Assembly: GCA_951406725.2 (NCBI GenBank)
Contig: OX597831.1
Span: 36,704,001 to 36,768,000, forward strand
DNA: 64,000 nt
From: Octopus vulgaris
Lineage: Eukaryota
Direction of reading: 5' to 3'
The translations under genes were made by a program, and so were the position numbers. Under the pieces are notes generated by a model that was given only the letters and a program-made list of their open reading frames with translations, did no database searches and was not told where the DNA came from. This document shows positions 4,169-43,450 of this stretch, in pieces. How positions within the stretch are numbered: the stretch's first letter is position 1; each line of letters begins with the position of its first letter.

Positions 4169-4400
4169 CAGTTCTATATTTAAGAGATGAGGAAACATGT
4201 ACATAATTTACATTATTTACATTATTTACATTTGACGGATATTTGTCCTCATCTTGTTTGTTGTTAACACAAAATTTTGGCTGATATATCCTCTAGCCTT
4301 CATCAGGTGCCTTGGGGGATATTTCGAACCTGGGTTCTCATTCCTAAGGTATTTTTCTATGTTGTTGTTTTTGCCGTTGTTGTTGTTATTATCATTATTA

Positions 4401-4442
<42 letters not shown>

Positions 4443-4550
4443 ATTCAGGTCACTGCCTGGAATTGAACTCAGAATCATGGGGTTAGTAGCCCATGCTCTT
4501 AACCACTATGCCATATGTCCGTGGGCATATTATTATTATTCAGTGAACTA

Positions 4551-4609
<59 letters not shown>

Positions 4610-4800
4610 TAATAATAATAATAAGAAGAAGAAGAAGAAGATCGAAAAATACCTTAGGAATGAGAACCCAGGTTCAAAATTTCCTGCAAGGCACCTAATG
4701 AAGGCTGGAGGGTATATCAGATGAAACGTGTTAACAACGAACAAGATGAGGACAAATATCTGTCAAATGTAAATGATGTAAATAAGGTAAATAATGTATT
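4169..4800. mobile_element. Inverted pair of tRNA-head/(TAA)n/hammerhead elements (minus 4169-4530; plus, head-truncated ~4540-4800)
   Basis: Both arms match 37400-37728; HHR cores decayed (4267-4310 minus, ~4691-4731 plus). Confidence 0.8.
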
Positions 4801-13903: not shown

Positions 13904-14215
13904 TCTGGGAGCTTAGTGGTGCTCCTATAATCACCTCTCTTTGGGGCTTTTGTTGCTCTTGGCTTCAGTTTAGTTTGAGGATAGGAGTCCTGGTAGTCAG
14001 TCTTCTCTGGTGATCAGGTGTCCGTGCTAAGCTCAGCATCAATACAGTGGTGGAAAAATGAGCTCATCAGGAGCAGGTTGTTTTAAAGAGAGTCGATTTG
14101 GCCCAGGGTGGAAACACAGCAGGTAAAAGACCCTGTGTCGAACAATAGTGGGATGATGCCTGTGAATAGTTGCCAGCTGGCAGCCTGTTCGATACAACTA
14201 AACACCAAACTCTTT
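13904..14215 (+). ncRNA. RN7SL: 7SL / SRP RNA, full-length copy (probably a pseudogene or retrocopy)
   Basis: Colinear with metazoan 7SL: gatcaggtgtccgtgctaagctcagcatcaata, caggttg, helix 8 ggcccagggtgGAAAcacagcagg, agtgggat...gcctgtgaatag, cagcctg; ~312 nt; helix 6 pairs poorly. Confidence 0.85.
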
Positions 14216-24610: not shown

Positions 24611-25450
24611 CATATGGCGTAGTGGTTAAGAGCATGGGCTACTAACCCCAAGATTCCACGTTCAGTTCCAAGCAGTGACCTGAACAATAACAATAATAAT
24701 AATAATAATATATTTCTTTATTGCCCACAAGGGGCTAAACATAGAGGGGACAAACAAGGACAGGCAAAGGGATTAAGTTGATTACATCGATCCCAGTGCG
24801 AAACTGGTACTTTATTTATCGACCCCGAAAGGACGAAAGGCAAAGTTGACCTCGGCGAAATTTGAACTCAGAACGTAGCGGCAGACGAAATACCACTAAG
24901 CATTTCACCTGGCACGCTAACATTTCTGCCAGCTTGCCGAATAATAATAAAATAGAAATTAGCAAAATGTGAAACTTGAAGACTAAAACAATACCTGCTA
25001 CCTAGCTCAGATATCAGGAAACCCCAAAATGGCAGAAATTCAAAAGATAGTGCCCATATCCTACGCAAAATACTTTCTATGTAATCTCAAGTTTTAAAAC
25101 AAACACATTATTTTCTTATGGTTTCTTAAACATTCTCTAGCACAACACTATGTACAAAACCAAATATATGGTGCCCTAGGCATATCACCAACATGAACTT
25201 TCAACTTGTTGTCTCTTGAGGTCTCTGGGTGAGACTTGGAGTCAACTTGTACAAATGTAACGCAAAAGTCAAACATGAAATAATAATAATAATAATAATA
25301 ACATTGTAAAATACCTTAGGAATGAAAACCCAGGTTCGAAATTTCCGCAAGACACATGATGAAAGCTGGAGGGTATATCAGCCGAAACATTGTGTTAACA
25401 ACAAACAAGATAAGGACAAATATCCGTCAAATGTAAATAATGTAAATAAA
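24611..25450 (+). mobile_element. tRNA-head/hammerhead element with 10-bp TSD, carrying nested SINE B (24712-24940, minus) and a LINE 3' end (24950-25300)
   Basis: aaaggttgat at 24598-24607 and 25448-25457; head 24611-24685; HHR 25352-25395 with C3 mutated. Confidence 0.8.
24950..25300 (+). mobile_element. R4/Dong-like LINE 3' end inserted in (TAA)n
   Basis: PKMAEIQK...AHILRKILSM* resembles the C-terminus of RLE-type LINEs; 3' UTR gaggtctctgggtgagacttgga; ends in (TAA)n. Confidence 0.55.
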
Positions 25451-33634: not shown

Positions 33635-34092
33635 TATAAAATTGCAGTGTGGAAGATGTTTGTAAGCCATTTAAGGAATACACAAAAACTATTAGTTTCA
33701 CAGCCCGCACTGTTAACCCTTATGCCATATGCTTGTGGGCTTAGGAGGTTTTGCTTTTTCTAGTACCTGTCTCACTTTCCACCTTAGTTCATCTCCCTGA
33801 GCTTTTGGTATCTTTATGGTTTTCTCACGGGCATATGGCATAGTGGTTAATTTTAATTTGTGTGAAAATATTTTCATCACTTTGAAACTGCAGCTTCGAA
33901 GTTTTGTCAGTGAACAGGTCGTGGTTTCAAAGCAGTGAAAATATTTTGATACAAGTTGAATTTAAATGTTGAAGTGAAACTAACGGTTTTTGTGTGTTCC
34001 TTAAATTGTTTACAAACATTTTCCATACTGCACTTGTTTTTGTTCCAGCACATGATGTCAGACCAAGTCACTTGCTATGTAAGTACATCTCC
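33635..34092. mobile_element. Rearranged copy of the 7805-8010 repeat containing the head-spacer-head core of the tRNA/HHR element (33700-33850)
   Basis: 33635-33700 is the reverse complement of ~7945-8010; 33900-34090 matches parts of 7805-8005; 33700-33850 matches 37271-37426. Confidence 0.75.
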
Positions 34093-35753: not shown

Positions 35754-36384
35754 CATGTATTTGTGCATGTATATATATTTATATATACATGCTTACACAC
35801 ACACATATATGCATATTTGTTTATATATATGCACACACATACATATCTGTTTATCGACCTATCCGAATGTATGTATGAATGTATGTATGTATGTATGTAT
35901 GTATGTATGTATGTATGTATGTATGTATGTATGTATTCATTGATCATTTATATAGAAAAAATGAAATAACCAATGTTTTTATTTACGAGTATTTTGAGTG
36001 AAAGTCATTTTCTGATTATTTTCTATGTTTTCCATTTAGTAAATATAGAGAATTCATGTATTTTTTTTTTGCCTATTTTAGTTTCCAAGATTCAATATTT
36101 ATCACATGCATTATTTAAATGTCCACCCATCTATATACACTAACCAGGTTTTACCTGGAATCGAGAATTTTCAGCACATCAGATAAGAAAACCTTACAAT
36201 ATTTTCCCCAGCTCTTTACGTTCTGAGTTCAAATCTAACCAAGCTGAAATTCGCTTTTCACCCCGACTACTAACCATAGTATAACAGTAACAGTCAAAAA
36301 TTGAAGCTGATAAAATTGACTGCTATTTTTAGCTCCTCTCAAAATTGCTCACCTTGTACTTAAATTCAAAACAATTATTAAACC

Positions 36385-36561
36385 CATTATTTACATTATT
36401 TACATTTGACAGATATTTGTCCTCATCTTGTTTGTTGTTAACACAACATTTCGGCTGATAGACCCTCCAGCTTTCATCAGGTGTCTTGGGGAAATTTCAA
36501 ACCTGGGTTCTCATTCCTAAGGTATTTTTCAATGTTATTATTTTTATTATTATTATTAATA

Positions 36562-36622
<61 letters not shown>

Positions 36623-37157
36623 CATTATTATTATTGAGTGAGAGAGCAGTGCATGCCATCAAAATGACACTGGGGTAAAATATACGAAGCCCAGTATACC
36701 TATCATGACTACCCATCTGATAAGGTTACACTAGGCACATGCATCACAACCATATGTGCGCGACATGGTGATCTCATATCAAGATAAACAGCACATGACC
36801 TTGCAGGTGGGGCCCAATTAGAATTATCTGGTCAAGTAACTCATCCTGCTCAAAAGGTCCCTGAATAAGGGTTGTTTAAGGATGTTGAATGAAACACCCA
36901 TGTTTCCAAAGGGGAATTATTCAAACCCCAAAGAATCACACTCAACACATGGCTATGATGCTCCCCCACTACTTCTGCTTATGATCAGAGATGCACATAT
37001 CGTCAGCCACCAAGGAACAGGCTCAACTGGTTAAAGTCAAACACCTGACAAGCAAATCTGTGGTATTGAGCAGAATATTTGCTGTAGCCTATCTTTTATA
37101 CCAACACAAAACAATGTAAATGATAACACTTCCAATCAGTTAAGTTATTTTAACCAC

Positions 37158-37219
<62 letters not shown>

Positions 37220-37310
37220 GTTATTGTTCAGGTCACTGCTTGGAATTGAACTAGGAATATTGGGGTTAGTAGCCCGCACTGTTAACCCTTATGCCACATG
37301 CTTGTGGGCT
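36385..37310 (-). mobile_element. tRNA-head/HHR element split by a ~500-bp unclassified insertion (36636-37160) in its (TAA)n linker
   Basis: Tail with HHR at 36441-36484; head at 37227-37310. Confidence 0.8.
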
Positions 37311-37399
37311 TAGGAGGTTTTGCTTTTCCTAGTACCTGTCTTACTTTCCCCCTTAGTTCATCTCCCTGAGCTTTTGGTATCTTTATGGTTTTCTCTTAT

Positions 37400-37511
37400 G
37401 CCCACGGGCATATGGCATAGTGGTTAAGAGTGCAGGCTACTAACACCAAGGTTCCAAGTTGGATTCCAAGCAGTGACCTGAACAATAACAATAACAATTA
37501 CGATAATAATC

Positions 37512-37547
<36 letters not shown>

Positions 37548-37728
37548 TTGAAAAATATTTTAGGAATGAGAACCCAGATTCGAAATTTCCCCAAGACACC
37601 TGAAGAAAGCTGCAGGGTATATCAGCTGAAACGTTGTGTTAACAACAAACAAGATGGGGACAAATATCTGTTGAATGTAAATAATGTAAATAATGTACAT
37701 AATTCCGCATCCCTTAAATATAGAACTG
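37400..37728 (+). mobile_element. Best copy of the tRNA-like head + (TAA)n + hammerhead element
   Basis: A box tggcatagtgg, ctactaa loop, B-box-like gttggattcc, TAA run, HHR, (aatgtaaat)n. Confidence 0.85.
37596..37639 (+). ncRNA. Minimal type I hammerhead ribozyme motif, core intact
   Basis: acac-CTGAAGA-a-agctg-cagggtatat-cagct-GAAAC-GTT-gtgt; loopless palindromic stem III (AACGTT). Confidence 0.75.
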
Positions 37729-37738
37729 AATTATTAAA

Positions 37739-37947
37739 CCCCTTAGCATTCAGATTATTCTTTTCTATGTTCTTGTTTATTTATTCACATTCGTTTTAAT
37801 TAACCATGCTTTCAAATTTCAATGATATGATTATTTAAGCTTAAAATGTAATAGTAGAATAGGTGTGAGAGGCTGCATCTGGCTGGTTTGAATGTAGAAC
37901 AGATAGAATATTAGGGCCTGATATGGTCAGTTTAAATGCTAAAGGAC
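37739..37947. mobile_element. piggyBac-like MITE
   Basis: TTAA near both ends; ccttagcatt / aatgctaaagg imperfect TIRs. Confidence 0.55.
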
Positions 37948-42789: not shown

Positions 42790-43450
42790 AACCATAGTTT
42801 TGTTCCATTGCAATAGGGTCCACAAGTTTCCAGTAATTCCCACCTGATGCTAAAGGGTGTATGATCGCTCTTTAGGCACCGTACGTATGCTGCGAGTGTC
42901 ATTGTGTTGCATTTCTCCAAGACCCTGAAAGAAGATCTGTGGTTGTTCAAGCAAATTTTAAATTTGGATTCACAATATCCGACCACAGATCTTCTTTCAG
43001 AGCTCCAGAGAGATGCAACACAATGACATTCACTGTATACGTATGGCATCTAAAGGACAATCATATACCCTTTAAGATCAAGTGGAAATTATTGGAAACT
43101 TGTGGACCCTATCACAATGGAACAAGACTATGTAAATTGTGTATGGCAGAAAGATATATAATCCTTATTTACTCACATGAGCCAGGAGGCTACCTGAACT
43201 CTAGGATGGAAGCAGTGGGCAGCTGTTCACATTTTCGGAAATTTTTACTTCAAAATTGGAAAACCTAGCTATCAAGTGAAGGAAGACAACTCGACCAGCC
43301 ATAATTTTTTAAGAGGAATATTTCTTTAACTATCACCGGTGTTCTTGTGTTTTAATAAAAACATTCTTTGCAGAGAACAGTTATCGTGTAGAGAAACTGA
43401 AGAGATGTCTAATCACGCTAGATATGAAACCAATGGCTTTCTTTTCTAAA
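42790..43450. mobile_element. Penelope-like element 3' end: GIY-YIG endonuclease C-terminus in inverted duplication (minus 42790-42985, plus ~42981-43268) with a downstream HHR remnant
   Basis: VGYCESKFKICLNNHRSSF; HRSSFR...VWHLKD...IKWKLLE...CKLCMAERYIIL...LNSRMEAVGSCSHFRKFLL. Confidence 0.85.
43391..43444 (+). ncRNA. Decayed hammerhead motif in the PLE 3' region
   Basis: gagaaa-CTGAAGA-g-atgtcta-atcacgc-tagatat-GAAACCAATGGC-tttctt; U16.1 apparently lost. Confidence 0.55.

Follow-up and report, generated by a model that had tools for sequence, protein, structure and literature searches.

A tRNA-derived head and a predicted hammerhead ribozyme in the pseudo-LTR of an octopus Penelope-like element

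A short repeat of Octopus vulgaris that joins a tRNA-like head to a predicted hammerhead ribozyme is almost certainly the pseudo-LTR of a ~2.6-kb autonomous Penelope/Poseidon-like element. The clade name is provisional because it rests on domain order and motifs, the quick tree having no named reference. Hammerheads in Penelope pseudo-LTRs are already known; what is out of the ordinary here is that a tRNA head occupies the promoter position. On balance, we consider it probable that this head serves as a Pol III promoter and that reverse transcription starting inside the ORF yields short SINE-like insertions. If Pol III also reads the ORF, a protein-coding retrotransposon would be expressed by a small-RNA polymerase, an undescribed mode of expression to which the use of Pol I with a ribozyme by R2 elements is a parallel. 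The divide between SINEs and autonomous elements would be blurred, with one promoter and internal priming by the reverse transcriptase (RT) yielding both. For annotation, ~50,000 loci that look like tRNA SINEs would be pieces of one Penelope family. Its ~48,000 insertions offer a test of how inverted ends form (through fold-back where the RNA has a defined 5' end) and of whether ribozyme cutting takes place in vivo (through the deletion hotspot at the predicted cut).

The focal insertion and its coding element

The window analysed here is a 64,000-nucleotide stretch of contig C18 in a 2.8-Gb genome of 227 contigs (G000). At 37399-37728 it contains a head, a (TAA)n linker and an arm with a hammerhead in the order given by the initial annotation, and the five arms that this annotation had reported were found where it had placed them. 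Its ~330-bp unit is not a whole insertion, but the right half of one inverted insertion at 36386-37728 with a 13-bp target duplication on both sides. The supposed (aatgtaaat)n tail consists of coding Asn-Val-Asn repeats (AATGTAAAT), followed by a 31-nt tail of the type known from Penelope-like elements (PLEs). The features of the family in the window are as follows.

36373-36385 (no strand): left copy of the target-site duplication, a 13-mer identical to 37729-37741
36385-36534 (-): inverted arm with the ORF start and a decayed hammerhead, ending in AATGTAAAT repeats, without a tail
36535-37224 (-): (TAA)n linker of the inverted half, split at 36638-37142 by a later 505-bp TAA-targeting repeat
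37225-37309 (-): tRNA-like head belonging to the inverted half, at 87% to a naturally occurring copy of the head
37310-37397 (-): 88-nt piece of the ORF of this element, from the part preceding the DKG motif, located between both heads; 83-85% to ORF copies L316 and L343
37399-37484 (+): tRNA-derived, Arg-like head; the 12-nt palindrome at its start is where short copies begin
37413-37423 (+): A box of the focal head
37458-37466 (+): B box of the focal head, mutated in this copy
37485-37545 (+): (TAA/CAA)n linker of variable length, internal to the pseudo-LTR
37546-37728 (+): arm
37566-37728 (+): codons 1-54 of the Penelope-like ORF, with the ATG at 37566 and the frame open across ribozyme and repeats
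37595-37640 (+): minimal type I hammerhead, predicted from sequence and fold
37698-37728 (+): 31-nt PLE-type tail after the AATGTAAAT repeats
37729-37741 (no strand): right copy of the target-site duplication, matching 36373-36385
4169-4796: another inverted pair belonging to the family, with an arm at 4169-4361 (-), a head at 4444-4527 (-) and an arm at 4641-4796 (+); its ribozyme cores are decayed
24611-25449 (+): third insertion (head 24611-24686, arm 25302-25449), with other repeats in between
33702-33850 (no strand): fragment 3.5 kb away with the same junction of head (-), ORF piece and head (+) as in the focal insertion

The ORF fragment between the two focal heads is likely the product of a template jump, and the fragment at 33702-33850 is likely a local partial duplicate of the focal insertion. 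The 505-bp repeat at 36638-37142, which we take to be possibly the 3' end of a Dong/R4-type LINE, ends in TAA runs and lies repeatedly inside the TAA linker of the Penelope element; at least four ATT units adjoin 37 of 44 end copies, and a random 1 Mb gave 24 hits.

Several lines of evidence tie the unit to coding sequence. Six loci selected by their head share upstream sequence, and two of them run into an ORF for an RT and an endonuclease. Starting from the other side, ends of the RT and GIY-YIG ORF enter the head 22 nt past the stop codon in 30 of 30 loci (29 by BLAST and one by reading; the 30 include four near-identical duplicates). The arm was found by BLAST in 26 of these 30 ORF-end-selected loci and lies downstream of the head in 27 of 30 head-selected loci; the ORF stop is followed by 22 nt, the head, (TAA)n and the ORF start with the hammerhead. 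In near-full-length copies the arm opens the ORF, and the frame runs from the ATG through the ribozyme, the AATGTAAAT repeats, an N-terminal domain and the DKG motif to the RT; loci L270 and L256 show the same frame continuing into the ORF. The N terminus of a related protein, P0007 (847 residues), is the same ribozyme-encoded peptide.

The single ORF, read from broken copies, encodes a PLE-type RT with a DKG motif and YVDD, and the RT domain matches Pfam RVT_1 (E 2e-10). Pfam gave no match on the C-terminal endonuclease part, and Foldseek returned nothing at E 0.001 for the C-terminal domain (low-confidence model, pLDDT 60). Against the GIY-YIG catalytic domain of I-TevI, this domain scored a probability of 0.90, TM 0.63, rmsd 2.6 and E 0.71, and the CCHH residues of the endonuclease (C185, C187, H206 and H223) are invariant in 11 of 11 rows. 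In the stretch linking RT to endonuclease, where Neptune and Nematis carry an extra zinc finger, no conserved Cys cluster was seen. Element copies are 85-95% alike; the longest open frame spans 569 codons (83 matches of 76 scored candidates), and no intact full-length copy was seen among them.

The family is abundant and carries the insertion marks of PLEs. Matches occurred in 17 of 100 evenly spaced 10-kb stretches (one of them just 22 nt long), with 24 arm hits, and the resulting density of ~17 insertions per Mb corresponds to ~48,000 genome-wide (95% range 28,000-76,000). An inverted partner is present at 58 of 88 arm-selected loci. The 31-nt tail sits at one end only in 47 of 47 inverted pairs (two borderline), and 29 of the 47 have a target duplication of at least 7 bp, against a null mean of 1.9. 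A pseudo-LTR formed by a partial tandem, which near-full-length copies show, an inverted 5'-truncated partner and a one-ended tail of 30-40 bp are among the PLE insertion marks given in the available text of 10.1101/2021.04.23.441226. The 3' ends are bimodal (n=96), with 43 inside the AATGTAAAT repeats and 32 at the end of the tail.

The initial annotation had proposed a non-autonomous element moved by a Penelope-like RT. The Penelope RT is borne out, but the unit belongs to the autonomous element as its pseudo-LTR, as the 30 ORF ends show. We regard it as very unlikely that the unit forms a non-autonomous family of its own, a retrozyme or SINE with a tRNA head that a Penelope RT mobilises in trans, given that the unit both closes every one of those ORF ends and opens the ORF, that its copies show no covariation and that they are single or inverted rather than arranged in short arrays. 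Short copies do dominate, with any ORF piece within 1.1 kb upstream at just 3 of the 88 arm-selected loci, and each of them holds the promoter boxes and the RT start region, both of which speak for such a family. The spacer of the long element is a third point in its favour: its last 10 nt (e.g. in L064 and L068) form an imperfect mirror image of head positions 12-19, which accords with the capture of an older short element and suggests that the head entered as a folded-back short copy. Against it, two linked subfamily haplotypes are common to short and ORF-linked copies (18 and 4 copies for one, 17 and 6 for the other). Since both haplotypes occur in both classes, short copies are not a separate lineage on present evidence; they may serve as secondary, SINE-like sources.

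Other candidates were rejected. A chance meeting of two repeats at TAA microsatellites is ruled out by the joining of head and arm in 27/30 and 26/30 loci (BLAST), and a tRNA-derived SINE, as a non-coding lineage apart from its partner retroposon, by the ORF linkage and the common haplotypes. Short arrays of the non-LTR retrozyme or Sm-alpha type do not fit either, as copies are single or inverted in the loci listed; L017 contains fragmentary direct repeats.

The tRNA-derived head and the 5' ends of insertions

Compared with 40 host tRNA sequences of 11 types, the head best matches tRNA-Arg(TCT), with a score of 52 against a shuffle maximum of 43. The initial annotation had likened it to tRNA-Ile(AAU); Ile(AAT) was absent from the comparison set, and a pattern search for a host Ile(AAT) tRNA gene found none. 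Among 128 full heads, 97 match the A box, 82 the B box and 63 both. The tRNA-like character of the head is supported by the boxes across the family and by the Arg(TCT) match, and Pol III is its likely transcriber; the focal copy's own B box is mutated. The head no longer folds as a tRNA; ARAGORN reported 0 tRNA genes in the window and, at relaxed thresholds, mixed isotypes on the heads.

Short and long copies end differently at the head. Among insertions reaching position 25 or lower, the 5' end falls at head positions 0-25 in 66 of the 68 cases selected by the arm and in 10 of the 13 chosen at random, and at positions 0-5 in 37 of the 68 arm-selected ones; 5' ends at 26-65 were excluded from the stop and pass counts, being inflated by microsatellite matches. 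By contrast, seven of 30 copies selected by the ORF N terminus reach the upstream head, where five pass its start, one stops at +5 and one at +43, and among near-full-length copies only one of six stops at the head while five run past it (Fisher p 2e-5 for short versus long copies, from an earlier tally). Because an RT block intrinsic to the sequence would stop both classes, an RNA 5' end is the likelier cause of the cliff. Position 0/+1 of the head lies 13-14 nt ahead of the A box, which is where Pol III starts at type 2 promoters, and judging from these positions short copies quite likely begin at a Pol III start site. At -1, 20 of 22 head-selected short copies carry an A and 15 of 15 ORF-linked copies a T; the A is expected if the cDNA end folds back and self-primes. 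A hairpin, imperfectly prolonged into the spacer, is located at position 0.

In the mechanism that we favour, Pol III transcription would start at the tRNA-derived head. On the model of the anole Poseidon element (PMC11167929), the RT-endonuclease would nick AT-rich DNA and start the cDNA at two sites, ~130 and ~160 nt into the ORF; copied back to the RNA 5' end at the head, this cDNA would give rise to tens of thousands of short SINE-like insertions. At that RNA end the terminal palindrome would fold back and prime the inverted second half. Pol III would also, with about even chances, read the entire ORF. Since the head is passed by five of six long copies, templates of coding length did not just start from the closest head. 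More tentatively, paired hammerheads might cut multi-unit RNA into unit lengths that are then rejoined, and such unit-length circles would also explain the long copies running past the head; read-through of tandem arrays might be an alternative source of these copies.

Two raw RNA-seq runs (one species label) and two contig sets covered the whole element in all 30 bins. The reads look unstranded and mostly run into flanks, so that they appear to come mostly from element copies inside other transcripts; they form no pile-up at the head or the cut and are uninformative on polymerase and ends.

Scarcity of T runs and a second tRNA-headed element

The coding unit is poor in T runs, the terminator signal of Pol III. 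Over 2,457 nt there are no four adjacent majority-T columns, against 30 such runs of A, and the most widely carried TTTT is found in 12% of copies. In 49 kb of coding segments TTTT occurs 24 times, compared with 76 under synonymous redrawing. Codon choice follows suit: Phe TTT is used at 0.31 versus 0.60 and Ile ATT at 0.21 versus 0.42 in the focal family versus its relatives, and the use of Asn AAT and Asp GAT shows no drop against the same relatives. In 49 related ORF stretches (the longer ones of 79 loci), TTTT is in excess, at 349 versus 201 expected or 5.4 per kb. Pyrimidine tracts are not depleted in the focal family and one AATAAA is retained by 49 of 90 copies; G4, ATTAAA and TTTCT are likewise scarce. 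The family amounts to a single data point: with ~4-5 TTTT expected per element, zero has a p of ~0.005-0.02. A LINE control from the same genome (5.7 kb) has 8 TTTT versus 13.3 expected, and five other relatives without a tRNA head are TTTT-low (observed/expected <1), four of them in T-poor sequence; where flank was present, no A/B box pair was found behind the ORFs of these five. Given this composition, we put the chance that Pol III reads the whole coding unit at about even. An ORF without T-run terminators would then have arisen because Pol III reads it.

A second element has a comparable layout. L346 is an intact Penelope-like element, a perfect 2,791-bp tandem on a metagenome contig (L346:180-5741), and 38% identical to P0007. 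It has an open frame of 901 codons, an A/B box pair ~70 nt past the stop and, after a short run of AAT, a hammerhead. The best match of its head is an intron-containing tRNA-Tyr (41 versus a shuffle maximum of 38.5), and its unit holds 2 TTTT versus 6.0 expected and no T5 (p 0.06 alone). It is the only one with such a layout among the 36 relatives that have enough 3' flank; in 80 related loci, A/B pairs were found in L346 (twice), in L366 (2.4 kb upstream of the match) and, as a poor one, in L397. In a quick tree with an unresolved backbone, L346 sits apart from the focal family, on another supported branch, and the two likely captured their tRNA heads independently.

These observations bear on two readings in which Pol III does not read the ORF. 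The tRNA-like sequence could be a passenger in the 3' UTR of an ordinary Pol II Penelope element, with short copies being 5' truncations at an RNA hairpin and the TTTT scarcity reflecting chance or U avoidance. This is unlikely, as stopping at the head differs so sharply between short and long copies, as related ORFs are rich in TTTT and as L346 has the same head position and depletion with another tRNA type. The hairpin at position 0 that reaches imperfectly into the spacer and the running of long copies past the head nevertheless accord with it, as do the TATA-less promoter with a DPE in the Drosophila Penelope pseudo-LTR (available text of PMC2377424), the partly TTTT-poor LINE control and a family-level p of just 0.005-0.02. 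Alternatively, Pol III could make short, SINE-like head and arm RNAs while Pol II read-through of tandem arrays supplies the coding RNA. Such a division would account for both the position-0 cliff and the long copies passing the head, and would avoid the translation of an uncapped RNA; a Pol III transcript with its ATG 5' of the ribozyme cut has no obvious translation route. It gives no reason for the ORF-wide loss of TTTT in two families, however, and we judge it quite improbable.

Further relatives added several observations. The closest ones, P0003-P0010, are poor in Phe (26 per 1,000 residues versus 39 in 149 further relatives), as avoidance of T runs would predict. P0010 is 52% identical to the C-terminal part of the focal family's protein, and its cluster includes barnacle proteins, which may point to cross-phylum transfer. 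No relative was found on viral contigs. The sole match in prokaryote genomes, L453, is a Penelope-like ORF with a hammerhead on a bacterial metagenome-assembled contig and likely represents animal-host contamination.

The predicted hammerhead and known systems

The focal hammerhead comprises the following parts.

37595-37599/37636-37640 (+): stem I
37600-37606 (+): core
37607 (+): extra A
37608-37612/37623-37627 (+): stem II
37628-37631 (+): GAAA
37632-37633 (+): palindromic CG
Between 37635 and 37636 (+): predicted cut

It is complete, with the CUGANGA/GAAA core, an extra base after A9, a palindromic 15.2-16.2, an NUH site and both stems; A-U replaces the G10.1-C11.1 pair of the family majority, and position 17 is U. 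The minimum free energy fold of 37588-37645 has the minimal type I shape, with 5 bp each in stem I and stem II, but its energy is no better than that of shuffles (z -0.01), and Rfam reported neither a hammerhead nor a tRNA in the whole window, the focal 361 nt, a clean head or L346. The minimal type I hammerhead of the initial annotation is borne out by core, extra base, palindrome, stems and fold shape. A strict scan of the window for the core and stem II gave two hits versus 0.17 expected. One is the focal core at 37600; the other, at 43397, is unrelated, has no palindromic NUH context and could be due to chance.

Variation of the stem II arms, which had been offered as support for the ribozyme, does not serve that purpose. 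Among 264 distinct copies spanning the ribozyme, stem covariation is at chance level: G10.1-C11.1 has 5 compensatory changes where 3.3 are expected, and each of the ten remaining pairs has 0-1. Stem variation is concentrated at CpG in these copies, and stem II variation is, as the alignment has it, neutral decay that occurs mostly there. Core, palindrome and both stems are retained in 50 of the 264 copies and in one of the five window arms, the focal one; N7 is the sole two-state position of the core (0.60/0.37). By eye and unscored, related families have different stem sequences that still pair.

A recurrent deletion lies at the predicted cut, at arm positions +32 to +37 from the core. Exactly 3 nt are lost there in 36 of 222 copies, about one in six (e.g. 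the window arm at 4641-4796), and 52 of 148 deletion events in a 127-nt region fall at the cut. The 3-nt loss occurs in both N7 subfamilies (20/111 and 15/65), whereas a deletion frequency of at least 10% is reached in just 2 of 2,257 ORF columns, both within an (AT)n run. Deletion at the cut is somewhat commoner in ORF-linked copies than in the others (16/56 versus 35/208, p 0.057). The 3-nt loss may be the footprint of rejoining, or of a jump, across the predicted cut by way of a 2-nt direct repeat; DNA slippage at this repeat could yield the same product. In the anole Poseidon element, according to the available text of PMC11167929, cleavage was not required in vitro, and none of the reads had an end at the cut. 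Cleavage and rejoining by the octopus hammerhead in vivo is a possibility against which we judge the balance to lean. A broader reading, to which we give slightly less than an even chance, is that at least twice autonomous Penelope elements swapped their promoter for a captured tRNA gene, purged a 2.5-kb ORF of terminators and came to have their RT mRNA made by Pol III. The hammerhead would cut in vivo to give unit-length, probably circular templates, and the same promoter would parent a SINE-like swarm.

Several known systems share parts of this organisation. Like the octopus family, the Poseidon element PAc of Anolis carolinensis has a single ORF for RT and GIY-YIG, a pseudo-LTR and a hammerhead over the ORF start that cuts downstream of the ATG. 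It also has two 3' end positions that bound an optional tail, and its two internal RT start sites resemble the bimodal 3' ends of the octopus family (PMC11167929, available text). It differs in that this text describes no tRNA head or Pol III promoter and presumes a promoter in the pseudo-LTR; in the octopus family the ATG lies 34 nt ahead of the core. Metazoan PLE hammerheads, as presented in the accessible part of PMC4209133, share the core, the unpaired base between 9 and 10.1, G10.1-C11.1 and the palindromic 15.2-16.2, and occur likewise as dispersed single motifs and opposite-strand pairs. A circle model is proposed there for their RNA. The octopus stem II, at 5-6 bp, sets the family apart from them, and a tRNA head or Pol III goes without mention in that text. 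In Drosophila virilis Penelope, the promoter is TATA-less with Inr and DPE and is followed by an intron; its place is occupied by the A/B box head in the octopus (PMC2377424, available text).

Sm-alpha offers the closest known precedent for joining a Pol III promoter to a hammerhead. In the Schistosoma Sm-alpha and Sj-alpha repeats, a Pol III-type promoter is followed by a hammerhead, so that the promoter lies at the 3' end of cleaved units; these are non-coding tandem repeats with canonical hammerheads, whereas the octopus unit holds the first codons of an ORF (PMC6765202, available text). Metazoan non-LTR retrozymes resemble the octopus unit in being short hammerhead repeats for which mobilisation by PLE proteins is proposed. 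According to the available parts of PMC7761336 and PMC7229834, they differ in being tandem and circRNA-producing, with canonical type I hammerheads and no conserved promoter, and in not being the terminal repeat of an ORF. In the parts of the literature covered, which also take in PMC8557442, PMC6962438, PMC8967140 and PMC5911963, we found no tRNA-type promoter in a PLE pseudo-LTR and no report of the octopus family's ribozyme. The family goes unmentioned in the available text of PMC13282606, whose supplement or deposited library may hold it. Existing catalogues may already list the short unit among the SINEs, either as OR1, OR2 or OK or in Repbase or Dfam.

The octopus SINEs OR1, OR2 and OK are reportedly tRNA-Arg-derived and possibly share their Arg-like head with the unit. 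Apart from the Penelope family, the window carries at 13904-14214 (+) a full-length match to metazoan SRP (7SL) RNA (115 bits versus a gathering score of 70). Several of its pairs are broken, and it is either a gene or a pseudogene. Elsewhere in the genome, 40 matches to a tRNA-Tyr pattern are clustered within ~165 kb (G000:C4:51909581-52072591).
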